From the IMG/VR virus record IMGVR_UViG_3300022213_000004: a DNA stretch of 64,000 bases. One strand, 5' to 3'. The translations under genes were made by a program, and so were the position numbers. Below are positions 5,477-58,119 of this stretch, one piece after another. Position 1 is the stretch's first letter, and the number at the start of each line of letters is the position of its first letter. The DNA comes from a virus. The notes beneath the pieces are model-generated. The model searched no databases. It saw only the letters and a list, made by a program, of their open reading frames with translations, and was not told the DNA's origin.

Positions 5477-5953
5477 ATGTTTTATATTTACAAATCAACT
5501 AATAAAATTAATAGTAAATTTTATATCGGTAGATGCAAAGGCCCTATTGAAAACAGAGAATATAAACACTGGTGGTATGTTTCCAATAAAAATAGCAATG
5601 CGCCATTTCCAAATGCTTTACGAAAATATGGAAGAGATAACTTTACGTGGGAAATTATAGAAGAAACTAATGAAAGTAATAATGGAGAAAGAGAAATCTA
5701 TTGGATAAATAAACTCAAACCACATTACAATGCAACTTTAGGTGGAGATGGAGGAACTCTTGGACATTCGTGCCCAGAACATGTAAAAGAAGCGACAAGA
5801 CAATCAAGAATTGTATCAGTTAAAGATAGAAAGACTGGAAAAATTTATACTTCTATGAAAGAAGCAAGAAAAGATACTGGAATTTTGGAAAGTAGTATAA
5901 GCAGATCTTTAAAATATAACGGACCTGGTAGTAGATGGGAAAGAGTTATCTAA
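5477..5953 (+). CDS. Free-standing GIY-YIG (Seg-like) homing endonuclease
   Basis: YIYKSTNKINSKFYIGR...ALRKYGRDNF...EREIYWI...YN; TATAAATA at 5446. Real start is ATG 5477, not 5135. Confidence 0.85.
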   Translation: MFYIYKSTNKINSKFYIGRCKGPIENREYKHWWYVSNKNSNAPFPNALRKYGRDNFTWEIIEETNESNNGEREIYWINKLKPHYNATLGGDGGTLGHSCPEHVKEATRQSRIVSVKDRKTGKIYTSMKEARKDTGILESSISRSLKYNGPGSRWERVI

Positions 5954-12531: not shown

Positions 12532-14715
12532 ATGCCCGTCAATCTAGAAGTTAAAGGTTCTCTTGCCAAATGTCTGGCAACTGAGAACCTGATTATCGAG
12601 CACAAGAAAGTTCCGACTGCAATGTTCGATGTTGACCGTCGTGTTCTGACTCTTCCGAATTGGGATAAAGCATCTGCGACTGTTTATGATCTTCTGGTTG
12701 GTCACGAAGTTGGACACGCACTCTTCACCGATAATATTGACTGGACTAAAGAATATCCTGAAGTTCCTAAGGACTTTGTGAACGTTCTTGAGGATGTCCG
12801 TGTGGAACGTCTGATGAAGAAAAAGTATCCTGGACTTTCTCGGACTTTCTATAATGGTTATAATGAACTGAACTCTGATGACTTCTTTTCAACCAAAGAC
12901 GAGAACCTGGATGAACTGACTTTTATTGACCGAATCAATCTTTACTACAAGATTGGTGCTTTTCATAACATCTGTTTCAATGATGAAGAGAATGAGTTTC
13001 TGACTCGTGCTTCTTTGACTGAAACTTTTGATGAAGTGCTGCAACTTGCTCGTGAAATCGCCGAGTATGTGAAGTATAAAAAGCAAGAGGTTCAGGCAAT
13101 GCCTACTTCTGGCGAAGGTGATTCTTCTCAGGGTGCTGGTGAGAGAACTGAAGGTTCTTCGGATTTTTCTCAAGATGGAGAGAATCAAGACGGTCAGAAC
13201 AAATCTGAACTGGACCAAGATTCGCAGGGTCAGTCTCAAACTGATGGTGAATCTTTTGGTGATGAGATGAATAAGTCTATGGAAGCACCGAGTGGTGGTG
13301 GTTTCGGTCAGGAAGCAAGTAATCAGCACGGTGAAAACAGCAAAGATGAACTGACTTCTAAGACCTCTCGTTCTTTTGATGAAAAGTCTCAAGACCTGGT
13401 GGATAAGTATGCTCAGGAAACTCATTATGTGGAACTTCCTAAGATGAATCTTGAGACGATGATTATTCCTAATGAGTTTATTCATCGTAAGGCAAAAGAG
13501 TTCTATGAAAATCGTGGAACTTATTACAAAGAGACTTTTGATTTTACTTGCAAGGAGTACAATGCCTACAAGAAATCTGCCGAAAAGGAAGTTTCTTATC
13601 TGGTAAAAGAGTTTGAGTGTAAGAAGTCTGCAGACCAATATGCTCGGTCTAGCACTGCCCGCACAGGTGTTCTGGATACTTCCAAACTCCATACCTATAA
13701 GTTTAACGAAGACCTGTTTAAGAAGGTCTCTGTGGTCCCTGATGGTAAGAATCACGGTCTCATCTTCATTCTTGACTGGTCTGGTTCAATGAGTGAGTTT
13801 ATCCTGGATGCTTATAAGCAACTGCTGAATCTGATTTGGTTCTGCCGTAAGGTGAATATTCCTTTCGAGGTGTATGCTTTCACTCTGGATGCTCATTCTT
13901 ATATGGAACTGCAACCCAATCATCCTCCTGTGTATGATAAAGTTGCTGGTGTTCTCTCCCCTGAAGCATCGTTCCGTCTGATGAATTTCTTCACCAGTAA
14001 AGTGAACAATCGAGTTCTCGATGAGCAACTCAAGAACATCTGGTGTGCTTGCTATTCTTATCAGAAACGTTCTGGTGCTGTTCCTCCTCACCTGGACCTT
14101 TCGGGTTCTCCTATTGGTGAAAGTATGATGGCACTGCACTCTCTGATTCCTGATTTTCAGGCAAAGAATAAACTGCAGAAGGTAAATGTTATCTTCCTGA
14201 CTGATGGTGAGGGTTATCAGAATTCGGTGACAGTTTCTCGCAAAGGTCGTTATCCTGATTCTCCCGAATATATCGGTCATACAAAGCATAATCGCACTGC
14301 AGTTCGTGACCGTAAGACTGGTCGTGTCTATCCTGCTCTGGACTATGATAACTTCCCTCGTTATGCAAAAGTTCTTCTGCAGACTGTGAAAGATAGGTTC
14401 CCGACTGTGAATCTGATTAACTTCCGTATTACTCCTGGTCGTGATTTTTCAAATTGCTACCGTTGGTATGGTAGTGGTCAGGAGAACTACGAGAAAGTAA
14501 AGTCCGATTATCGCAAGAACGGATGTGTTCAATTCACTGAAACTGGTTTCGACCAATTCAATGTGATTGCATCATCTTCTCTCGCACAAGATGAAGACTT
14601 TGTGGTTCCCGAGAATGCAACAAAAGCACAAATCAAAACTGCTTTCTCTAAAGTTCTTGGTAAGAAAAAGACTAATAAGAAACTCCTCAGCAACTTTATT
14701 TCTATGGTCGCATAA
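12532..14715 (+). CDS. CobT-like protein: N-terminal HEXXH peptidase-like domain, acidic linker and vWA domain
   Basis: HEVGH, LDWSGSM (MIDAS) and FLTDGE; partner of the downstream MoxR/CobS ATPase. Confidence 0.85.
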   Translation: MPVNLEVKGSLAKCLATENLIIEHKKVPTAMFDVDRRVLTLPNWDKASATVYDLLVGHEVGHALFTDNIDWTKEYPEVPKDFVNVLEDVRVERLMKKKYPGLSRTFYNGYNELNSDDFFSTKDENLDELTFIDRINLYYKIGAFHNICFNDEENEFLTRASLTETFDEVLQLAREIAEYVKYKKQEVQAMPTSGEGDSSQGAGERTEGSSDFSQDGENQDGQNKSELDQDSQGQSQTDGESFGDEMNKSMEAPSGGGFGQEASNQHGENSKDELTSKTSRSFDEKSQDLVDKYAQETHYVELPKMNLETMIIPNEFIHRKAKEFYENRGTYYKETFDFTCKEYNAYKKSAEKEVSYLVKEFECKKSADQYARSSTARTGVLDTSKLHTYKFNEDLFKKVSVVPDGKNHGLIFILDWSGSMSEFILDAYKQLLNLIWFCRKVNIPFEVYAFTLDAHSYMELQPNHPPVYDKVAGVLSPEASFRLMNFFTSKVNNRVLDEQLKNIWCACYSYQKRSGAVPPHLDLSGSPIGESMMALHSLIPDFQAKNKLQKVNVIFLTDGEGYQNSVTVSRKGRYPDSPEYIGHTKHNRTAVRDRKTGRVYPALDYDNFPRYAKVLLQTVKDRFPTVNLINFRITPGRDFSNCYRWYGSGQENYEKVKSDYRKNGCVQFTETGFDQFNVIASSSLAQDEDFVVPENATKAQIKTAFSKVLGKKKTNKKLLSNFISMVA

Positions 14716-14720
14716 TTTCT

Positions 14721-15353
14721 ATGAATTTTTATACCTATGCTTACTTGAGAGAGGATGGCACCCCTTACTATATTGGTAAGGGGGTTGGTAATAGAGCATA
14801 CAAAAAATCTAAAAGAGAGATTAATCCACCAGTAGATAAAAATAGAATAATTTTCTTAAAGAAAAATCTAACGGAAGATGAAGCATTTAGGCACGAAGTT
14901 TATATGATTGATATTTTTGGTAGAAAAGATTTAGGAACAGGTATTTTAAGAAATAAAACTAATGGTGGGGAAGGTCTCTCTGGACTTATTTGGAGTGAAG
15001 AACATAAAGAAAAAATAAGTAAATCGCAAGAAGGTGAATCTAATAGTTTTTATGGTAAATCACATTCTGAAGAGACTAGGAAGAAACTAAGCAATGCATT
15101 TAGTGGAAAAAATCATCCACAATATGGGGGAACAATTTCGGAAGAACATAAACTCATATTGAGTAGAGTTCATAAAGGTAAAATTCCTTGGAATAAAGGG
15201 AAAAAAGGTGTGCAGATTCCTACTGAAGAGACTAGAAGAAAACGCAGTAAAGCAATGAAGGGAAGAAAATGGTGGCATAATCCAATAACAGGAAAAACGC
15301 AAATGTCTATAGAATCTCCTGGAAGTGATTGGGTTTTGGGTAGAACTCCATAG
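14721..15353 (+). CDS. GIY-YIG-like homing endonuclease with NUMOD3 repeats
   Basis: YTYAYLREDGTPYYIGKG; FYGKSHSEETRKK repeats. Confidence 0.85.
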   Translation: MNFYTYAYLREDGTPYYIGKGVGNRAYKKSKREINPPVDKNRIIFLKKNLTEDEAFRHEVYMIDIFGRKDLGTGILRNKTNGGEGLSGLIWSEEHKEKISKSQEGESNSFYGKSHSEETRKKLSNAFSGKNHPQYGGTISEEHKLILSRVHKGKIPWNKGKKGVQIPTEETRRKRSKAMKGRKWWHNPITGKTQMSIESPGSDWVLGRTP

Positions 15354-17646: not shown

Positions 17647-17696
17647 TTATTATGAAAGATAATATTCTTCTAAATAATAATAGTTGAAGAATATTA

Positions 17697-18155
17697 ATGC
17701 CAAAAAATCAATACAAAGATAAAACAACAAAAGAATATCAGCAGGAATGGAAAGCCAAAAATAGAGAAAAACAGAGGCAACTTCAAAGAGACCATTATAA
17801 TAAGAAAAAAGAGTATTTGCTTGAAAATGTTGGAAGTGTCTGTGTATCTTGTGGTTCAACATCAAATATTGAATTTGATCACATTAGACCAAGAACATCT
17901 TCCGAAAAAGAGAAGCAAACTCGTCTCAGAACTGATAACACGGGAGGAAACATAGTATGGAATAAAAGACCATCTGCTATGAGTTGGGAATGTATTAAAA
18001 AAGAAATTCCTGATTTACAACCTCTTTGTAGAGATTGTCACCGAAAAAAATCCAACGCACAACTTGCTGCTGCTTGGGAACTTTTTTGCTCCTTAACTCT
18101 TAAGGAACAAACCAAACTTACAAATTTACAATATGGAAAAAATGAAATTCTCTGA
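17697..18155 (+). CDS. HNH endonuclease with zinc-binding CxxC pairs
   Basis: CVSCG...EFDHI...LQPLCRDCH. Confidence 0.85.
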   Translation: MPKNQYKDKTTKEYQQEWKAKNREKQRQLQRDHYNKKKEYLLENVGSVCVSCGSTSNIEFDHIRPRTSSEKEKQTRLRTDNTGGNIVWNKRPSAMSWECIKKEIPDLQPLCRDCHRKKSNAQLAAAWELFCSLTLKEQTKLTNLQYGKNEIL

Positions 18156-18836: not shown

Positions 18837-19352
18837 ATCAATATCTTCGTTACTTCTCCCTTTCCTGCTGAGAGTGCCATCTGCCTCCCAGACAAGCACG
18901 TTGTCAAGATGCCCTTAGAGTGCTGTCAGATGCTCTCTATCGTGGCATCAGACAAGTGGGGACACGGGTACGGCACCCTCCCTAAGGCAGATGGAACCCC
19001 CTACAAGACCGAGAAAGGAGCATTCCGCAATCATCCCTGCACCAAGTGGGCACTGGAGAGTATCCATAATGCCTATTGGTTAATCAAGTGGGGATTGAAC
19101 TTGTCTGATGAATACTGCCTGCGGTATAATAAAACTCACTCCTGTTATAAGACCCTTGTGGATGCATACTATTTGTTTCCCAAGGGTAAGATTACAGAAG
19201 TGACTCCATTTGCTCGTGCTATGCCTGAGGAATGGAAGTTTGACGATACTATTGACACATTTGAAGCATACAAACGATACATTGCATCCAAACCCTGGGT
19301 TGCTGATAATTATCTTCGTATGCCGTCAAGACGACCCTCTTGGATAATATAA
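18837..19352 (+). CDS. Pyrimidine-dimer DNA glycosylase / DenV-like family protein with apparent ATC start
   Basis: (I)NIFVTSPFPAESAICLPDKHVVKMPLECCQMLS and HPCTKWA motifs. Family-type N-terminus extends 24 codons upstream of the ATG at 18909. Confidence 0.8.
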   Translation: MNIFVTSPFPAESAICLPDKHVVKMPLECCQMLSIVASDKWGHGYGTLPKADGTPYKTEKGAFRNHPCTKWALESIHNAYWLIKWGLNLSDEYCLRYNKTHSCYKTLVDAYYLFPKGKITEVTPFARAMPEEWKFDDTIDTFEAYKRYIASKPWVADNYLRMPSRRPSWII

Positions 19353-19444
19353 ATAATGATGCCTGGTTTGTTCGCACTTTTCAGGTGGGAGAGTAGAAAT
19401 GCTCTCCCTTATAAATACTAATGCGAACAAACAACAGAGCAGAG
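19348..19444 (+). ncRNA. Candidate small structured RNA / leader cassette upstream of endonuclease (copy 1)
   Basis: TATAAATA, GCCTG-[GTTTGTTCGCA]-CTTTTCAGGT, GAAA-tetraloop hairpin, TATAAATA, TGCGAACAAAC. Covaries with the copy at 51044. Confidence 0.7.
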
Positions 19445-20023
19445 ATGTATTACACTTACGCCTATTTGCGTGAAGATGGAACTCCTTACTATATTGGTAA
19501 AGGTAAAGGAGACCGTGCATATAGAAAAGTTGGAAAACCTTGTGCTACTCCAAAAGATAAAAATAAAATAATACAACTCAAAACAAATCTTACAGAAGAA
19601 GAAGCATTCAATCACGAAAGATATATGATTTTTATCCTTGGTAGGAAAGATTTGGGAACTGGTATTTTATTAAACAAATCTGATGGTGGCGAAGGTAGAA
19701 GTGGATATGTTCCAACAGAAGAACTAAAAAGAAATCAAAGTAAGAGGATGAGTGGTGAAAATAATCCTATGTACGGTAAAAAAGGTGTTGAATGTCCTTG
19801 GTATGGGAGAAAACATAGTGAAGAAACAAAAAATAAAATTAGTAAATCTTTAACTGGCGAAAACCATAATTTTTATGGAAAAAAACATAAGCAAGAAACA
19901 AAAGAAAAAATGAGTGAAATTAAAAAAGGAGAAAAAAATAGTTTTTATGGAAGAAAACATACAGAAGAAAGTAGGAGAAAAATGAGGGAAGCAGCAAAAC
20001 GAAGAAAAGAAAAAAGTTCTTGA
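19445..20023 (+). CDS. GIY-YIG-like homing endonuclease with NUMOD3 repeats
   Basis: YTYAYLREDGTPYYIGKG; paralog of 14721..15353; alternative in-frame ATG at 19421. Confidence 0.85.
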   Translation: MYYTYAYLREDGTPYYIGKGKGDRAYRKVGKPCATPKDKNKIIQLKTNLTEEEAFNHERYMIFILGRKDLGTGILLNKSDGGEGRSGYVPTEELKRNQSKRMSGENNPMYGKKGVECPWYGRKHSEETKNKISKSLTGENHNFYGKKHKQETKEKMSEIKKGEKNSFYGRKHTEESRRKMREAAKRRKEKSS

Positions 20024-20903: not shown

Positions 20904-20962
20904 TCTTGAATAAGTGTAAATAACTCATTTACTAAATAGTATTATACTACGAGGTTTAGTAA

Positions 20963-21496
20963 ATGAGTTGCGTTTATCAAATAAGAAACAAAATAACAGG
21001 AGAAAATTACATAGGTTCTACTGAAAAGAATTATATGCTTAGGTTTGCTAAACATATAACTATGTGTAATAGTAATAAAATGGATTGTCCTAAACTTTAT
21101 GAAAATTTTTTAAAGTATGGGTATCATAATTTTACTATTGAAGTCGTAAAGTGGATACACGAAGACGAAGACCTCAAAAAAGTAGAACAAGAATATTGTG
21201 AATGGTTAAACCCTTCTTTAAATTCTTTATGGGGAACAAAACATACCAAAGATTCTATTGATAAAATGCGTAAGTCGCAAAGAGAATATTGGTCTAAAAA
21301 TTCTCATCCAAGAAAAGGAGTTCCTTTTACTGAGGAACATAAAAATAATCTTTCAAAATCTATGGGTAAAAAGTGTTATGTTGATGGAGTAGTTTATGAA
21401 TCTGTGAAAGAATGTGCTAAAATACTTGGTATCCATAGGGATACTGCAAGTTGGAGAATGAGAAGTAAATCATTTCCAAATTACTATTACCTTTGA
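20963..21496 (+). CDS. GIY-YIG homing endonuclease
   Basis: CVYQIRNKITGENYIGST...KYGYHNF; NUMOD-like C-terminus. Confidence 0.88.
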   Translation: MSCVYQIRNKITGENYIGSTEKNYMLRFAKHITMCNSNKMDCPKLYENFLKYGYHNFTIEVVKWIHEDEDLKKVEQEYCEWLNPSLNSLWGTKHTKDSIDKMRKSQREYWSKNSHPRKGVPFTEEHKNNLSKSMGKKCYVDGVVYESVKECAKILGIHRDTASWRMRSKSFPNYYYL

Positions 21497-25001: not shown

Positions 25002-25178
25002 ATGAAATCTTTCGACGAGTTCAAAACAATTGCATATAGGGAAGCAATCCCACATACTGTTTATTCTCAAGGAAAACAAAAGCAAGTTCCAAAAGGAAAA
25101 GCAGTTCCCGTAAGAAGTCGTTCAAGTGCTGGTGGTAATGGAAATGGTGATGGTGGTGGAGGAGACGGTGGAGAATAA
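25002..25178 (+). CDS. Small late protein with Gly-rich tail (not in ORF track)
   Basis: MKSFDEFKTIAYREA...GGNGNGDGGGGDGGE; TTAAATA box upstream. Confidence 0.65.
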   Translation: MKSFDEFKTIAYREAIPHTVYSQGKQKQVPKGKAVPVRSRSSAGGNGNGDGGGGDGGE

Positions 25179-49524: not shown

Positions 49525-49683
49525 ATGTCTAAAAATAATTTTAACAAAGATGAATTTAGAGTTAGAGTGCTAAAGTTAAAAAACGAACTATATCACGATT
49601 CAAATTGGTACTCAAATCCCAAGAACCTGGCGGATAAATACCTGAATAAGGTTCTTGAAATTATTGATGAGTACAGATATTAA
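49525..49683 (+). CDS. Small hypothetical protein (not in ORF track)
   Basis: MSKNNFNKDEFRVRVLKLKNEL...YLNKVLEIIDEYRY. Confidence 0.6.
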   Translation: MSKNNFNKDEFRVRVLKLKNELYHDSNWYSNPKNLADKYLNKVLEIIDEYRY

Positions 49684-50267: not shown

Positions 50268-50421
50268 CAGAATCTAAATAAAAACTTATGATGCTAAAAT
50301 CCTTGTTATGAGCAAGGTTTTTTGTTATGAGACTTTGAGTGACATTTAGAGCCGTGGAAAGTGCCCTTTGAAAAAAGGGTGTACCCCCTTTCTATACGGA
50401 TGTAGAGTTCAATTAATTTTA

Positions 50422-51048
50422 ATGCAAAACTGCTTTACTGTAGCCCTCTTGCCTCTGTTGGCAACGGTTACAACCACAACGGCAACACTGCCATCATCTG
50501 CTATTGCTCCTTCATATTCTATTATTAAGGAGTTTGAAACAGAGAAGACAGCAATCCGCGAGGTTGCTCCCGAAAAGCCAAAAGAGAAAAGGCTAATTTG
50601 TAAAGGGTGTAATGAACATGAAAATACTGCCCTGGCATTTTTCCAGGATCGCGGTATTAAAGACAGAAACGCCCTTGCTACCATCATGGGTAATATTCGT
50701 CAGGAATCAACTTTTGTTCCTAACATTTGTGAAGGTGGTAGCAGAACCTCATACTATAATTGTGGAAGAGGTTATGGTTTGATACAATTTACTTCTGCTT
50801 CTCGTTATTATGGACTGGGTGCTTTTGCTAAAAAAATAGGAGGTAATCCTTCTACTGCTGATACTCAACTTCGGTATATTACTACTGAACCACAATGGAA
50901 GAGTATTGAAAACAGAATGAGAGTTTCTGGAAAATCTATTGATAGGTATATGAATTATGCCTACGAATGGATTGGATGGGGACACCATGGAGCAAGAACA
51001 CAATATGCTTATGACTATGCTAAACGATTGGTTCTTGCTGATGTCTAA
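50422..51048 (+). CDS. Phage tail-lysozyme-family cell-wall hydrolase with N-terminal signal-like segment
   Basis: IMGNIRQES and GYGLIQFT motifs. Confidence 0.8.
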   Translation: MQNCFTVALLPLLATVTTTTATLPSSAIAPSYSIIKEFETEKTAIREVAPEKPKEKRLICKGCNEHENTALAFFQDRGIKDRNALATIMGNIRQESTFVPNICEGGSRTSYYNCGRGYGLIQFTSASRYYGLGAFAKKIGGNPSTADTQLRYITTEPQWKSIENRMRVSGKSIDRYMNYAYEWIGWGHHGARTQYAYDYAKRLVLADV

Positions 51049-51145
51049 ATAACTTTACCTGACTTGCTGACACTTTTCAGGTGAGATTGGAGTGCTTCGG
51101 CACTCCTTTCTTGTATAAATAGTAATGTCAGCAAGTTAGAGTAGT
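51044..51145 (+). ncRNA. Candidate small structured RNA / leader cassette upstream of endonuclease (copy 2)
   Basis: CTAAATA, ACCTG-[ACTTGCTGACA]-CTTTTCAGGT, cUUCGg hairpin, TATAAATA, TGTCAGCAAGT. Confidence 0.7.
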
Positions 51146-51796
51146 ATGAAACACTTTTATGTGTATTATTCCTATGAGGAATATGGAAGGGGATATATTG
51201 GAAAAAGAGAATGTAAATGTCTTCCAGAAGAAGATGTAAGTTATTTTGGAAGTTTCAAAGATAAAACTTTCAATCCAACTCAAAAAATAATATTAGAAAC
51301 TTTTGGGAGTGTTGAAGAAGCACTTGAAGCAGAATGTGCTCTCCACGATTTTTATGAAGTAGATAAAAATCCACACTTTGCTAATAGGGCAAAACAAACT
51401 TCTACTGGATTTTATTGTAATAAAGGTGCTGGTGAAGAAGCAAACAAGAAAAGAAGTGAGTTGATGAAAACAGAATACAATCCTATGAGTAATCCAAAAC
51501 TCAAAGAGAAAGCAAGAAAAAACTTGATTAGAACTTTGAGTAATCCAGAAATGAGAAAACTAAAAAGTAGAGTTGGAAAGAAAGCACACAATCGTCCAGA
51601 AGTAGTTGAGAACCATAGACAGGCAGCACTCAAATCTCATCAAAATCCAGAAACAAAAAGAAAACATATTGAGGCAAAACTTGGTGAGAAAAATCCTTGT
51701 TATGGTAAAAAGTGGATTACAAATGGAAATGAAAACAAATACATAAACTCTATTGATGAAGTTCCAAGTGGTTTTTGGTATGGTAGAGTTGTTTGA
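51146..51796 (+). CDS. GIY-YIG-like (Seg-type) homing endonuclease
   Basis: FYVYYSYEEYGRGYIGKR...YFGS...EALEAE...FAN; GKKWITNG. Confidence 0.8.
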   Translation: MKHFYVYYSYEEYGRGYIGKRECKCLPEEDVSYFGSFKDKTFNPTQKIILETFGSVEEALEAECALHDFYEVDKNPHFANRAKQTSTGFYCNKGAGEEANKKRSELMKTEYNPMSNPKLKEKARKNLIRTLSNPEMRKLKSRVGKKAHNRPEVVENHRQAALKSHQNPETKRKHIEAKLGEKNPCYGKKWITNGNENKYINSIDEVPSGFWYGRVV

Positions 51797-52681: not shown

Positions 52682-52753
52682 GGGAGATTAGCTCAGTGGT
52701 AGAGCAATGTGCTGATAACGCAGAGGTCGGTGGTTCAAATCCACCATTTCCCA
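52682..52753 (+). tRNA. tRNA-Ile(GAT)
   Basis: Cloverleaf, anticodon loop CTGATAA. Confidence 0.95.
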
Positions 52754-52792
52754 CTTGACAACCATTTCCAAGTCTGGTATGATTGTCTTATT

Positions 52793-52865
52793 GGGGCAGC
52801 AGCATGACGGATCATGCACCATCCTTCTAAGATGTAAGATGGGGGTTCAAATCCCTCCTGCCCTG
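52793..52865 (+). tRNA. tRNA-Arg(TCT)
   Basis: GGGGCAG/CTGCCCT acceptor, loop CTTCTAA, GTTCAAATC T arm; C instead of T at position 8. Confidence 0.85.
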
Positions 52866-52962
52866 TTACCACTTGCGCTGGAAAGATAAACCAGAATGCC
52901 GTGGTAAGATAGAGGGTAAGCCTCTGTTATATCCTTGAGGTATGTCACGCTTACTCCATCTA

Positions 52963-53035
52963 GCCCTTGTATTCCAACGGTAGAGAAGGTGGACTTAGAA
53001 TCCATACAGTGTAAGTTCGAATCTTACCAGGGGCA
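52963..53035 (+). tRNA. tRNA-Leu(TAG) with short variable loop
   Basis: GCCCTTG/CAGGGGC acceptor, GTGGA-CTTAGAA-TCCAT anticodon arm. Confidence 0.88.
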
Positions 53036-53054
53036 CTTAATTACTCTAGATTAT

Positions 53055-53543
53055 ATGGAATGGAAAAAACATCCAATCTTTGATAATTATGAAGCATCTT
53101 TAAATGGTGAAGTAAGAAATCAAAGTAAAAAGATAATAAAAACTAAACCCTTACAAACATATCATTCTGTTGTCACATTATGGAAGAATGGTAAAAGAAA
53201 ATTTATGGTAACTTCTAAATTTGTTTATGAGTGTTTTTATGGATTAATTCCAAAAGAATTAGTAGTAATGCACCACGATGAATATTTACCTGAATTTTGT
53301 ATTAACGCAACATTCAATTTATTTCTTGGCACTAGGTCTATAAATCAAAAAGATGCTTATCAAAAAGGAAGAATGTTGCCAACTAGAGGAGAAAAAAGTG
53401 GCAGGTCATATCTTTCACAAGAACAAGTTGACAATATAAGAAAAATGAGATATGATGGATGTACTTATGCACAAATAATAAGTGTATATAAAATACCAAA
53501 ATCAACCTTGTCAAATATAATTAATCACAAAACCTGGGCTTGA
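53055..53543 (+). CDS. HNH-type (NUMOD4-like) homing endonuclease within the tRNA cluster
   Basis: MEWKKHPIFDNYEASLNGEVRN...VMHHD...NLFLGT...N; C-terminal HTH. Confidence 0.8.
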   Translation: MEWKKHPIFDNYEASLNGEVRNQSKKIIKTKPLQTYHSVVTLWKNGKRKFMVTSKFVYECFYGLIPKELVVMHHDEYLPEFCINATFNLFLGTRSINQKDAYQKGRMLPTRGEKSGRSYLSQEQVDNIRKMRYDGCTYAQIISVYKIPKSTLSNIINHKTWA

Positions 53544-53579
53544 CATTATGCCCACCTCTTGGTAAAATAATGTTTATAT

Positions 53580-53651
53580 GCGGGTATCGTCTAACGGCTA
53601 AGATGATTGCCTTCCAAGCAATAGATGGGGTTTCGATTACCCCTACCCGCT
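53580..53651 (+). tRNA. tRNA-Gly(TCC)
   Basis: GCGGGTA/TACCCGC acceptor, ATTGC-CTTCCAA-GCAAT. Confidence 0.93.
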
Positions 53652-53691
53652 CTTGGTAGTCGTTAGGCACATAGTCTAAAAAGACGCCAAA

Positions 53692-53761
53692 GGAAGTTAA
53701 GTCAAAGAATCGAGACAAGCAGACAATGCCCTTTGAACTGGTGTAAGTCCAGTAACTTCCT
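53692..53761 (+). ncRNA. tRNA-like RNA with non-canonical anticodon arm
   Basis: GGAAGTT/AACTTCC acceptor, GTC/GAC D stem, ACTGG-TGTAAGT-CCAGT T arm. Confidence 0.6.
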
Positions 53762-53765
53762 TTAT

Positions 53766-53837
53766 TCCCCTGTGGCGCAGCGGTAGCGCGAGAAACTGTT
53801 AATTTCCAGGTCACAAGTTCGAATCTTGTCGGGGGAG
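53766..53837 (+). tRNA. tRNA-Asn(GTT)
   Basis: TCCCCTG/CGGGGGA acceptor, loop CTGTTAA. Confidence 0.93.
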
Positions 53838-53937
53838 TTGGAAGGACTTCGGTTCCTCCATAAGAATCGGGATCATCATATCCGATTCACTAAGACCTAA
53901 GTTCGCTTAGGCCAGGGGGATGGCCTCCCCTGCTAAT

Positions 53938-54010
53938 GGGCGATTAACTCAGCGGTCAGAGTGTCTGCTTTACACGCAGAAAGTCCACGGTTCAAATCCG
54001 TGATTGCCCA
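53938..54010 (+). tRNA. tRNA-Val(TAC)
   Basis: TCTGC-TTTACAC-GCAGA anticodon arm. Confidence 0.95.
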
Positions 54011-54038
54011 CTTGATAAATAAAAATAAAAAGAGTATA

Positions 54039-54473
54039 ATGGAAAAACTTTATAAACTACTAAGTGATGCTCAGTCATCGCTTTTTGTTTTATTCCATAA
54101 AACTTGGGCATTTCACTGGAATGTAGTTGGTGAAGATTTCACTCAACTCCACCAACTTTTTGGTGGTCAGTATGAAACTATGTTTGAGGAGATTGATCGT
54201 CTCTCAGAACATATGCGTTATCTAAATGTAAAACCTCTCAGCTCTCTTTCAAGAATGCTTGAGGTAACTCAAATCAAAGAGGCAGCAAGTTCAACGGGAG
54301 CAAAAGAAATGCTTCAGGAACTGCTTGAGAACAACGAAAAGTTTTGTGAGTTGATGGCAGAAATTTCGGAGGAATCCGAAGCACAAAAGCAATATGCAAC
54401 TGCTAATCTAGTTCAAGATTTAATGGAATCTCATGGTAAGTTTGTTTGGCAGTTAAGAGCGCACCTGCAATGA
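54039..54473 (+). CDS. dps: Dps-family ferritin-like DNA protection protein
   Basis: HWNVVG..F..LH.LF..QY.....IDRLSEH ferroxidase signature. Confidence 0.9.
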   Translation: MEKLYKLLSDAQSSLFVLFHKTWAFHWNVVGEDFTQLHQLFGGQYETMFEEIDRLSEHMRYLNVKPLSSLSRMLEVTQIKEAASSTGAKEMLQELLENNEKFCELMAEISEESEAQKQYATANLVQDLMESHGKFVWQLRAHLQ

Positions 54474-54488
54474 TTAGGATGAAGAACA

Positions 54489-54740
54489 ATGATTTCAATA
54501 AGATGTAAAGATTGTAATAAAGAGTTATTTGGGCACCCATCAAAAACAGTAACTTGTGGTTGTCCAAATATGGCAACAATTCGTGGAGATAAGATTTCAG
54601 CACTTGACTTATCTCGTGTTGTTATGTTAAACTCTATTCAGAAAGAACAAAAATCAAATGTTCTGACTTCACAAGATCTTGCTTTTCAAGAAGCAAGACG
54701 CCAACGCAAAGTAAAGCGTTTGGATTTTGAGGTCCGTTGA
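54489..54740 (+). CDS. Small zinc-ribbon protein conserved in cyanophages
   Basis: CKDC...CGCPN. Confidence 0.7.
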   Translation: MISIRCKDCNKELFGHPSKTVTCGCPNMATIRGDKISALDLSRVVMLNSIQKEQKSNVLTSQDLAFQEARRQRKVKRLDFEVR

Positions 54741-54749
54741 GGACTTTTT

Positions 54750-54836
54750 GGAAGGTCAATCCGATTGGCGACGGAACCGCTCTTGAAAAGCGTTGAGGTG
54801 TTAAAGCCCTTGGGAGTTCGACTCTCCCACCTTCCG
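54750..54836 (+). tRNA. tRNA-Ser(TGA)
   Basis: GGAAGGT/ACCTTCC acceptor, loop CTTGAAA, long variable arm. Confidence 0.95.
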
Positions 54837-54909
54837 TTTTTATATCAATATATTATAATCCTTAAGAAATGATATAATGTCTACATATTAAATATATCAA
54901 AATACAAAA

Positions 54910-55125
54910 ATGACAGGGTTTTATCTTCTAATGCTGACATTTATTGCATTAGTAGTATACGCGGGTTATGATGAAACCATGAGACTTTTTCAATATGCAG
55001 ACCTACAAGTTAGGTATGCTGTAGTAAGAGTTCAGATGAAATGGATGGGTTGGAACCTTAAAAGACAACTGATTAAGGATACAACTAATTTTGAAAAGTT
55101 CCTTAAGGAGTACACGGATGACTGA
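54910..55125 (+). CDS. Small membrane-anchored protein
   Basis: Hydrophobic N-terminal helix. Confidence 0.65.
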   Translation: MTGFYLLMLTFIALVVYAGYDETMRLFQYADLQVRYAVVRVQMKWMGWNLKRQLIKDTTNFEKFLKEYTDD

Positions 55126-55366
55126 TAAAGAGATGTCCGATCTTTCACTGGAAAGAAAGGAATGCCCAAAGTGTGGTGCTGTTTGGATTAACGGAGAGCA
55201 CTACTGGTCTGGAACAGGAAAAAAAGGAAATGAATTAGATCTTGCTGGATTAGTTTGTAATAAACATGGAGATGATACTTGTATTAACTCAAGTAGAGGA
55301 AAAGAAGGTGGTGTTACTTGGGAAAAGAGATTGACTGAACTGGAACAAGATCATCCAAACCAATGA
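55118..55366 (+). CDS. Small Cys-rich protein conserved in cyanophages
   Basis: CPKCGAVWINGEHYWSGTG...DLAGLVC; AAGGAG RBS. Confidence 0.7.
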   Translation: MTDKEMSDLSLERKECPKCGAVWINGEHYWSGTGKKGNELDLAGLVCNKHGDDTCINSSRGKEGGVTWEKRLTELEQDHPNQ

Positions 55367-55566
55367 TGCACGAACAAGAAGAGTTTATTACACGCTCAGA
55401 AGTTCAGGAGATGATTGATGCAGCAATACGACAACACAACCGTAATGCTTCTATCATTAGTATGTGCGTCGGTTGGGTGGTTCTTGCTTTATTTGCTGAA
55501 GGACTTTTGAGACTTGTAGGAGTTATTCCTCCATTACTTCCATGGCTCAAAATCACTCTGAACTAA
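55363..55566 (+). CDS. Small membrane protein
   Basis: HNRNASIISMCVGWVVLALFAEGLLRL. Confidence 0.7.
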   Translation: MMHEQEEFITRSEVQEMIDAAIRQHNRNASIISMCVGWVVLALFAEGLLRLVGVIPPLLPWLKITLN

Positions 55567-55832
55567 TATTCTTAGTTCCTTGGTTTGTTCTTGTGGTGAT
55601 TGCACTGACAATGTTTGTGCAAGGTTGGATGATTATGAATGCTCGTCATGGGTATTCAAAAAGTCCAAAAGTAAAACATCCAGAATTAAACGACGTTAAA
55701 GCAGGAGATCCTCTACTAGTGGTTAGATTCACCGAAGAAGATTTGCAAGAATTGCAACAGAAAATTTTACAACAAAAAATGAATGAACTTTTTGAAGAAC
55801 CATCAACTTATGAGGACGAGGAAGATGAGTAA
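55542..55832 (+). CDS. Membrane protein, DUF2973-like
   Basis: TM helix followed by KHPEL......LLVVRF. Confidence 0.6.
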   Translation: MAQNHSELIFLVPWFVLVVIALTMFVQGWMIMNARHGYSKSPKVKHPELNDVKAGDPLLVVRFTEEDLQELQQKILQQKMNELFEEPSTYEDEEDE

Positions 55833-55900
55833 AACACTTTTGGCACTAACACTCATTTATGGGTCAACTATTGGTCTGTGGATTTATTGGGGATTGACTC

Positions 55901-56101
55901 ATGCATATCCCCAATAAACAGAAGTATCACTTTGCAATGTCTGCTTTTGTAAGAATGCACGGATACGCTATTATGAACAATATAGATATTAAACAGTTTT
56001 GTGAAGAATGGTCTACTTGGGAAGTTACTGCTCCGTTACAGGGACTTGACGAAGTGGACCAATACATGTATTATGAATATAAGAACTGGAGGGGAAGATG
56101 A
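55901..56101 (+). CDS. Small hypothetical protein
   Basis: 66-aa ORF ending YYEYKNWRGR. Confidence 0.6.
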   Translation: MHIPNKQKYHFAMSAFVRMHGYAIMNNIDIKQFCEEWSTWEVTAPLQGLDEVDQYMYYEYKNWRGR

Positions 56102-56214
56102 TTTTTCAACTAGTTGAAGCACTAGCATCAAATCCTTTCTTTCTTTTTCTTTGTGGATGTGGGTTGACAGTCGTACCATTTGCTGGTATTATGTTTATAC
56201 ACAGAAACAAATAA

Positions 56215-56290
56215 CGGAGTATCGCCTAACTTGGTCATGGCACCTGCTTTGGGAGCAGGAATAATTTCGGTTCAAATCCGAATACTCCGA
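56215..56290 (+). tRNA. tRNA-Pro(TGG)
   Basis: CGGAGTA/TACTCCG acceptor, CCTGC-TTTGGGA-GCAGG. Confidence 0.93.
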
Positions 56291-56307
56291 TCATAAAACT
56301 TTACTTT

Positions 56308-56547
56308 ATGAAAATGTATCCAGAACATCCAGAACATCCAGAACTTCAGACATTTACAGTAGAAGAGTTTCAAGCAGATTTTGATAACTTAATGAAAAGA
56401 GTAGAAAATGGAGAGTCTTTTATTATTAAAGATGGAGGAAGAAGTGCAGTGATAGTTCCATATAATGAAACTATAAAGTATGCGATAGATTCAGTTGTGG
56501 ACGACGATGTGATACGAATACACACCGACCACGAAGAAGGTTCGTGA
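56308..56547 (+). CDS. Phd/YefM antitoxin-like protein
   Basis: TVEEFQADFDNLMKRVENGESFIIKDGGRSAVIVPY matches the Phd/YefM pattern. Confidence 0.65.
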   Translation: MKMYPEHPEHPELQTFTVEEFQADFDNLMKRVENGESFIIKDGGRSAVIVPYNETIKYAIDSVVDDDVIRIHTDHEEGS

Positions 56548-56554
56548 TTTTTGT

Positions 56555-56645
56555 GGGGGCATAGTTCAACGGTAGAACAGCGGTCTTATACTCCGTATTA
56601 GCGCCAGATTAGCGCGAGGTCTTGGTTCGAATCCAAGTGTCCCTA
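56555..56645 (+). tRNA. Atypical tRNA with TAT anticodon and extra hairpin in the variable region
   Basis: GGGGGCA/TGTCCCT acceptor, loop CTTATAC, GCGC-CAGATTA-GCGC insert, canonical T arm. Confidence 0.8.
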
Positions 56646-56665
56646 TTCCACTTAATGTGGATTTT

Positions 56666-56736
56666 GGGCGGGTACTTTAATGGTAAAAGAGGCTCCTTAT
56701 AAGGGCTCATTCGGGGTTCAATTCCCCGTCCGCCTA
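56666..56736 (+). tRNA. tRNA-Ile(TAT)
   Basis: GGGCGGG/TCCGCCT acceptor, GGCTC-CTTATAA-GGGCT. Confidence 0.88.
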
Positions 56737-57984: not shown

Positions 57985-58112
57985 AACTTATACTGGTGGA
58001 GTCAAAATGACCCTATTATGAGTTTATTGCCTCTCTCAAGGGCAATTGGTGCGGATGGGACTCTCTCCCGCCTGGTTTCCAATTTCCAGTCAAAGAATTG
58101 GTGGCGAGCCTG
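57967..58112 (+). ncRNA. Structured RNA upstream of gmd, wcaG/manA-motif-like
   Basis: GC-rich multi-hairpin intergenic region with TGGTG and TGGCG elements ahead of a nucleotide-sugar gene, as described for cyanophage wcaG RNAs; family not verified. Confidence 0.55.
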
Positions 58113-58119
58113 AATTTTC

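Follow-up and report, generated by a model that had tools for sequence, protein, structure and literature searches.

As selfish genes, homing endonucleases have to be harmless to the phage in which they reside, and to our knowledge a detailed account of how they are silenced exists for no more than a few T-even phages. In the case of I-TevI, I-TevII, I-TevIII, segB, and the mobE gene of Aeh1, a structure sequestering the ribosome-binding site (RBS) is formed on read-through RNA only, and the position of a late promoter lets the late RNA escape it (PMC2988022). Hairpins carrying the octamer TATAAATA and two complementary motifs have also been reported from the leaders of endonuclease genes in marine metagenomic DNA (Dassa et al., 2009; PMC2677866). 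There the free-standing endonucleases are found in "fractured genes", ten hairpins contain TATAAATA, and one locus retains its hairpin after loss of the endonuclease gene. The c4 RNA of phages P1 and P7 is a short RNA of the same strand, located upstream of its target, with loops complementary to the downstream ribosome-site region.

Here a leader cassette is described that is present in two copies in 64,000 nucleotides of viral DNA (the whole stretch analyzed, hereafter the window). The window comes from a T4-like cyanomyovirus; its nearest cultured relatives by blastn are the Synechococcus phages S-SRM01, DSL-LC02/03, and S-PM2. The cassette probably elaborates on a type of control that has been described for phage T4, and the account that we favor, with fair though not full assurance, is that it serves as a cis-acting expression gate of free-standing homing-endonuclease genes in T4-like cyanophages. 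As in the T-even phages and Aeh1 (and at T4 e and soc), TATAAATA lies just 5' of the nuclease gene within a structure covering the RBS, and as in these systems it is proposed that only upstream RNA forms the structure, and that late RNA starts inside it and stays open (PMC2988022). The cassette differs in that 53 nt separate the two strands of the helix, with another stable hairpin and its U-rich tail between them, whereas theirs is one compact hairpin; in that a conserved local hairpin would initially keep the 5' strand in its loop, and its stem would then swap partner to the ribosome site; in having a second late-promoter-like octamer 6 nt before that local hairpin; and in that the whole leader is conserved, portable, and common to unrelated nuclease families.

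The hairpins of Dassa et al. (2009) likely belong to the same family, as judged by their description. They too come from marine or aquatic phage-like DNA and lie 5' of GIY-YIG and other endonuclease genes, whereas a terminator hairpin, a local alternative hairpin, an upstream octamer, covariation statistics, and shuffling between leaders and nucleases do not figure in their account (PMC2677866). The c4 RNA resembles the cassette in that related phages differ in its specificity, the RNA and its target having changed in concert. However, c4 is processed from an operon transcript and controls an antirepressor in a temperate phage, whereas the cassette belongs to a lytic T4-like phage, has no sequence or structural relation to c4, and would give a separate RNA only hypothetically.

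The Cassette and the Gene Behind It

Direct reading of the DNA confirmed every motif that an earlier note, made without database searches, had listed for the copy at 51044-51145 (copy 2; Table 1). The stop codon of the upstream tail-lysozyme-like gene (TAA, 51046-51048) lies within CTAAATA (51045-51051). The ACCTG (51057-51061) is part of a left stem with two alternative partners, CAGGUG in the local hairpin and the UAGAG of the ribosome-site region at the base of a long helix. The core of the inner hairpin, GGAGUGC-UUCG-GCACUCC (51089-51106), is followed by the tail UUUCUU (TTTCTT, 51107-51112), and TATAAATA at 51114-51121 is located 24 nt before the nuclease ATG at 51146. The 4-nt offset from promoter to 3' arm, said to be the same in both copies, is indeed so. 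The only partner of the 3' arm within the window is its cognate 5' arm, and the same exclusiveness applies to the arms of copy 1, which have a different sequence (GTTTGTTCGCA/TGCGAACAAAC) and flank an inner hairpin with a GAAA loop. The ribosome site is weak, with a GAG core (AGAG-type in the family).

Table 1. Positions of the cassettes, their parts, and associated genes; coordinates refer to the window unless a contig is named.
Feature	Position	Strand	Basis or remarks
Upstream gene, phage tail lysozyme-like	50368..51048	+	ORF; phrog_512; ortholog L095 matches Pfam Phage_lysozyme2
Copy 2, P1, TCTAAATA, putative upstream late-promoter-like octamer	51044..51051	+	predicted +1 A51057 (T4 spacing rule)
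Copy 2, left stem UACCUG	51056..51061	+	folds; local-hairpin pair counts; stem variants in relatives
Copy 2, 5' arm ACTTGCTGACA, variable segment in local-hairpin loop	51062..51072	+	perfect complement of 51126-51136
Copy 2, CTTTTCAGGTG, spacer CUUUU and right stem CAGGUG of local hairpin	51073..51083	+	sequence, folds
Copy 2, inner GC hairpin and U-rich tail, probable intrinsic terminator	51084..51112	+	terminator-like site
Copy 2, P2, TATAAATA, late promoter	51114..51121	+	predicted +1 G51127; T4 consensus spacing
Copy 2, 3' arm TGTCAGCAAGT, complement of 5' arm	51126..51136	+	exact complement, fold, covariation
Copy 2, UAGAGUAGU, weak ribosome-binding region	51137..51145	+	paired with left stem in read-through RNA (MFE fold)
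Homing-endonuclease-like gene, 216 aa, homolog of S-PM2 p181	51146..51796	+	ORF; phrog_314; blastn to S-PM2
Copy 1, whole cassette	19348..19444	+	model score 101.5 bits; same order of parts as copy 2
Copy 1, P1 TATAAATA	19348..19355	+	
Copy 1, arms	19366..19376, 19422..19432	+	
Copy 1, inner hairpin	19387..19408	+	
Copy 1, P2	19410..19417	+	
Copy 1 nuclease, 192 aa, three NUMOD3 repeats	19445..20023	+	
Simple inverted-repeat leader of gene 20963 (GIY-YIG)	20922..20969		
Simple inverted-repeat leader of gene 17697 (HNH-like)	17660..17696		
Simple inverted-repeat leader of gene 49655 (SegE-like)	49615..49662		
Solo leader (no nuclease gene)	L025:5232..5346		octamer, hairpins, TATAAATA, 3' arm; also L042, L043, L045, L073, L075, L078

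The product of the gene at 51146 matches phrog_314, annotated "homing endonuclease" (E 4.7e-12). Its assignment to the GIY-YIG nucleases is tentative: it is based on the N-terminus FYVYYSYEEYGRGYIGKR, which fits the GIY...YIG pattern by eye, and on the PHROG match, but Pfam makes no such call, giving only a sub-threshold match to NUMOD3. F-CphI of S-PM2 was considered as a homolog and rejected; the homolog is the neighboring p181, which has no cassette.

The ATG that had been pointed out in both target segments exists, in frame with the nuclease in copy 1 (19421) and opening the short reading frame MSAS in copy 2 (51125-51139, ATG-TCA-GCA-AGT-TAG), but it is incidental. No more than 52 of 92 members have it, and the first base of the late transcript, as predicted from T4 spacing, lies downstream of it. 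It is therefore placed outside the mechanism, and the upstream reading frame or in-frame ATG was rejected as a functional part.

RNA Folding and Covariation

The RNA of copy 2 has a minimum free energy (MFE) of -45.6 kcal/mol (z -6.58), and none of 200 shuffled sequences folded as well. Its MFE structure is one long helix from 51055 to 51144, which encloses the inner hairpin and the promoter, takes in the ribosome-binding region, and ends 2 nt before the AUG. Copy 1 behaves like copy 2 (-38.1 kcal/mol, z -4.5), and the long helix is about 17-20 bp. Among 94 unique members the full-length RNA forms the long helix at a mean of -40.1 kcal/mol, the segment preceding the inner promoter folds in every case into a pair of neighboring hairpins (mean -22.7 kcal/mol), and the predicted late RNA is nearly unstructured (mean -3.8 kcal/mol). 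Positions -14 to +3 are on average 55% paired with partners upstream of the promoter in the same set.

Columns were counted on an alignment of 97 sequences fitted to the covariance model described below (A3), which was used in place of a MAFFT alignment of the diverse set (A2), as the latter was inconsistent in register across arms of different length. For the long helix and inner hairpin together, 93.5% of cells were paired. Shuffled alignments gave 72%, and sliding the partner gave 41-59%. Of the 22 pairs, 21 had changed on both sides (454 cells), which was reached by none of 500 shuffles. An independent search of the raw sequences for complementary arms led to the same pairs and to 42 distinct arms, all with matching partners. 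For the inner hairpin it had been proposed that structure rather than sequence is conserved, and this is well supported, as 88% of cells are paired and seven of seven pairs have changed on both sides; the hairpins average -14.2 kcal/mol in the family and have GAAA, UUCG, or GUAA loops. In copy 2 the segment 51089-51112 is a GC-rich stem-loop followed by a U-tract, as expected of an intrinsic terminator, with a 7-bp stem containing five GC pairs, a UUCG loop, and the tail TTTCTTGTAT. The U-tract of copy-1-type members is short (UUAUAAAUA) and makes a weaker tail.

The local hairpin CCUG/CAGG, whose columns were not fitted in the alignment, is paired in 94.8% of cells and four of its four pairs have changed on both sides. 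Covariation thus supports the long helix between the arms and, more modestly, the local hairpin. Relatives also have register-shifted local stems (CCUUAA/UUAAGG, CCUAAG/CUUAGG, GCUUG/CAAGC, and CUCUAA/UUAGAG), and wherever the left stem differs the ribosome-site region differs accordingly (CAGAG, UUAAGAG, AAAGCAG), which indicates that the left stem has two alternative partners. G-U pairs are frequent in the helices, one pair being G-U in 47 sequences, and the minus strand scores only 15-18 bits with the model compared with 87-101 bits for the plus strand. The signal therefore resides in RNA and is specific to the plus strand.

Size and Spread of the Family

A covariance model (R1) built from 39 leaders scored 101.5 bits at copy 1 and 87.3 bits (E 5.6e-18) at copy 2, with 18 bits for the next best site in the 64-kb window, and by this model the window contains exactly two cassettes. 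In all, 97 matches at E < 1e-3 were obtained in 88 sources, often two or three per contig, and 84 viral contigs match an exact 13-nt core together with TATAAATA. As a guard against circularity, relatives of both nucleases were also gathered by protein and their upstream regions read; the architecture was kept in these even where the "invariant" core had changed. The parts follow one another in the order (A/C)TAAATA octamer, local hairpin with the arm in its loop, GC hairpin with U-rich tail, TATAAATA, arm complement, AGAG-type ribosome site, and ATG.

Among cultured phages blastn found a match to copy 2 in S-SRM01 only, and none to copy 1. S-SRM01 itself has six cassettes, each immediately 5' of a nuclease-like gene of about 180-250 aa (gp030, 066, 075, 091, 114, and 297); they are located at 17958, 48438, 51252, 55964, 62411, and 192426. 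In the published genome (NC_070963.1) the annotated starts of gp075 and gp297 (51291 and 192466) fall inside the cassette and the real starts are probably near 51349 and 192523; knowledge of the family would correct such gene starts in published genomes. The S-SRM01 gene gp114 (62515), located behind a cassette, is annotated as "translation initiation factor 2"; it probably encodes a homing endonuclease.

In 596 Gb of prokaryotic genomes the exact core pattern occurred four times, and none of the four sites was recognized by the covariance model; they are chance matches, about eight being expected by our own estimate. Searches of Rfam gave no family at either cassette at gathering thresholds and only noise at E values up to 10, the best sub-threshold scores being 20.8 bits (mir-1006) and 16.2 bits (TarB). 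The family is thus absent from Rfam and could be added to it as a cis-regulatory RNA family.

A second architecture was seen 5' of relatives of the copy 1 nuclease on eight contigs (L181, L185, L214, L220, L221, L223, L224, and L240), about 100 nt before position 1501 of each. Here an outer hairpin GGGGCA...GUAAGUCCCC encloses the local hairpin that bears the arm, followed by (T/A)ATAAATA and an arm complement that directly abuts the ATG. Model R1 does not detect this form on the eight contigs.

Exchange of Leaders between Nuclease Lineages

The proposal that the cassette is a module independent of nuclease lineage was borne out, as near-identical leaders are found 5' of unrelated nuclease domains. 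The two nucleases of the window align weakly, and only through their C-terminal repeats (E 1e-4). The 94 non-redundant cassettes carry 42 arm sequences and precede six N-terminal nuclease families, two of them HNH-type, and five arm classes are each used by more than one nuclease family. In eleven pairs the leaders are at least 90% identical and the N-terminal domains have no BLASTP match; the leader of copy 2 is among them, being 93-95% identical to leaders of the other nuclease family. The cassettes are preceded by at least 19 upstream gene families, including tail lysozyme, a denV-like glycosylase, DUF1825, gp32, ThyX, and a gp19-like protein. When orthologous loci are compared, the flanking genes have diverged more than the scaffold. 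In one lineage the arms were replaced as a matched block, with 91% identity in the nuclease gene and 64-73% in the arms; at more distant orthologous loci (L100, L097) they are unchanged.

At the lysozyme locus of seven contigs from one lineage the leader is complete and the nuclease gene is absent (Table 1). A second TATAAATA follows about 35 nt further on, before an unrelated gene of 309 aa. Either the nuclease was lost and this solo leader is what remains, or the leader serves some purpose by itself.

These observations suggest that aquatic T4-like cyanophages use a standard, portable leader, combining a terminator, a late promoter, and an RNA partner switch, to silence their nucleases. The leader is supported by covariation, and it has moved between nuclease families that are unrelated and between numerous insertion sites.

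Proposed Mechanism and Alternatives

In the account favored here, transcripts arriving from upstream would first fold the local hairpin with the variable arm in its loop, and most of them would probably end at the stable GC hairpin with its U-rich tail. In read-through RNA the complement that lies immediately behind the inner promoter would pair with the 5' arm, the left stem would then switch partner to the AGAG ribosome-site region, and the resulting helix of about 17-20 bp, ending 2 nt before the AUG, would block initiation. Late RNA from the TATAAATA located between the arms, with a predicted start at G51127, would be without the 5' arm, essentially unstructured, and translatable. The pairing most likely acts within one read-through RNA and not via a separate regulator, and the leader probably confines translation of the nuclease to the short late transcript of that gene. 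The parts themselves, their fixed spacing, the pairings with their covariation, and the modular spread are features of the sequences; promoter and terminator activity, the transcript ends, and the effect on translation we infer from them. Since the gene upstream of copy 2 is a late structural gene, the early-versus-late logic of T4 is not directly applicable at this locus, and since the ribosome site is weak, "RBS sequestration" here rests on the general accessibility of the leader.

A pure cis mask does not require a conserved, covarying local hairpin, nor an octamer at a fixed distance of 6 nt from it. Both features fit a short RNA, running from the octamer to the terminator, that presents the arm in a loop, and such an RNA could speed the cis pairing or act in trans on the late mRNA. 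In its full form the latter idea is that the 5' half of the cassette is a small-RNA gene, with the upstream octamer as an active late-type promoter and the GC hairpin as terminator. Its product of about 55-60 nt would repress the nuclease mRNA in trans, since its loop and 5' end complement the initial ~19 nt of the late mRNA of that nuclease; in a variant the repressor would be the equivalent 3' end of terminated upstream transcripts. Each cassette would have its own arm, following the logic of an antisense antidote as in the c4 RNA of P1 and P7 or in type I toxin-antitoxin systems. We regard this as unlikely.

In favor of it, the upstream octamer is NATAAATA, the published late consensus of S-PM2, in 59 of 93 members and NCTAAATA, with the Aeh1-type CTAAATA, in another 30. 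On the other hand, the C at -12 of the latter 30 is rare in the late promoters of most T4-like phages (PMC1524935). The gap between octamer and CCUG is 6 nt in 91/93 members even though its sequence varies freely, and this parallels the inner octamer, which is TATAAATA in 87/93 and is followed by the 3' arm after 4 nt in 90/93. Upstream reading frames end at five different offsets relative to the octamer (-4, -3, 0, +4, and +7), so the octamer is not conserved as a stop codon. Still, TAAATA overlapping a TAA stop is common in the AT-rich genome of the window, as where a gene simply ends at 25174. The T4 consensus occupies -13 to -6 (PMC1524935), and with this spacing RNA from the upstream octamer would begin at A51057, a purine at the base of the local hairpin. 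The octamer TCTAAATA has a strand bias in the window (nine on the plus and one on the minus strand; TATAAATA, 11:2), and it may be a second late-promoter octamer of this phage, by analogy with CTAAATA in Aeh1. It often follows a T-run and lies 12-29 nt before the start of a reading frame (e.g., at 5949, 17669, 23772, 32200, 37630, and 42920).

Also in its favor, the RNA before the inner promoter always folds as a hairpin with the arm in its loop followed by a stable hairpin and a U-rich tail, and the local hairpin covaries on an alignment that was not fitted to it. Arms differ between cassettes on all contigs with two or three of them, although distinct arms within a genome are also expected from chance and selection against repeats. 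The block-wise switch of arms between loci with closely similar nuclease genes likewise speaks for the small RNA, but the unchanged arms at L100 and L097 argue against a steady diversifying pressure. Furthermore, a repressor that shares promoter class and timing with its target would be an odd design. Should the small-RNA reading be true, selfish nuclease genes would carry a portable, re-addressable antisense "safety catch", and arm switching would make the cassettes of a phage genome that has several of them independent of one another. As S-SRM01 is in culture, the involvement of a phage-encoded small RNA is directly testable there.

It is highly unlikely, in our view, that the long helix is instead a device for processing or coupling. 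RNase III would cut the duplex of ~20 bp, separating and stabilizing the upstream mRNA, or ribosomes terminating at the upstream stop, 8-16 nt before the left stem, would transiently open the base of the helix and so allow low, coupled translation of the nuclease. The length of the helix (17-20 bp) and the fact that upstream reading frames always end within a few nucleotides of the cassette agree with this, and the mobE mRNA of Aeh1 was reportedly found by Gibb and Edgell in 2007 to be processed at an RNase E-like site. However, no sequence feature specifically calls for RNase III, tight gene packing is the rule in these phages, and a helix over the ribosome site is directly explained by masking. 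That the inverted repeat acts as DNA, whether by extruding a cruciform, by being recognized by a nuclease, or by serving the recombination that moves cassettes, is scarcely credible, for even though the leader recombines as a unit between nuclease genes and I-TevI binds an operator overlapping its own late promoter (PMC2988022), the frequent G-U pairs would amount to A-C mismatches in DNA and in the opposite strand, scores on the minus strand are low, and unrelated nuclease families on the same scaffold would not share a DNA site.

Other Nuclease Genes and RNAs of the Window

Three other nuclease genes of the window have a simpler form of leader, in which a late-promoter octamer (CTAAATA or GATAAATA) is located in the left arm or loop of an inverted repeat of 11-15 bp at the start codon (Table 1). 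The presence of this one-hairpin form places the cassette within the T4-type tradition. The paralog of the copy 1 nuclease at 14721 (53% identical) was said to have no cassette, and it proved to have neither promoter nor repeat and to begin 6 nt after the upstream stop. At this junction (14715-14723) the nuclease gene is leaderless behind a gene of 727 aa and promoter-less, like several seg and mob genes of T4.

The segment 25176-25261 was considered as a small-RNA unit and rejected; a terminator together with a sigma-70-like promoter gives it the appearance of a usual gene end, and it is no relative of the cassette. Nine tRNA genes are clustered at 52682-56736, and the reading frame 52935-53543, which encodes a nuclease-like C-terminal part, overlaps the tRNA gene at 52963-53035, so that its true start must be further downstream. 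A full-length wcaG RNA (Rfam RF01761, 103.5 bits) is present on the plus strand at 58018-58115.
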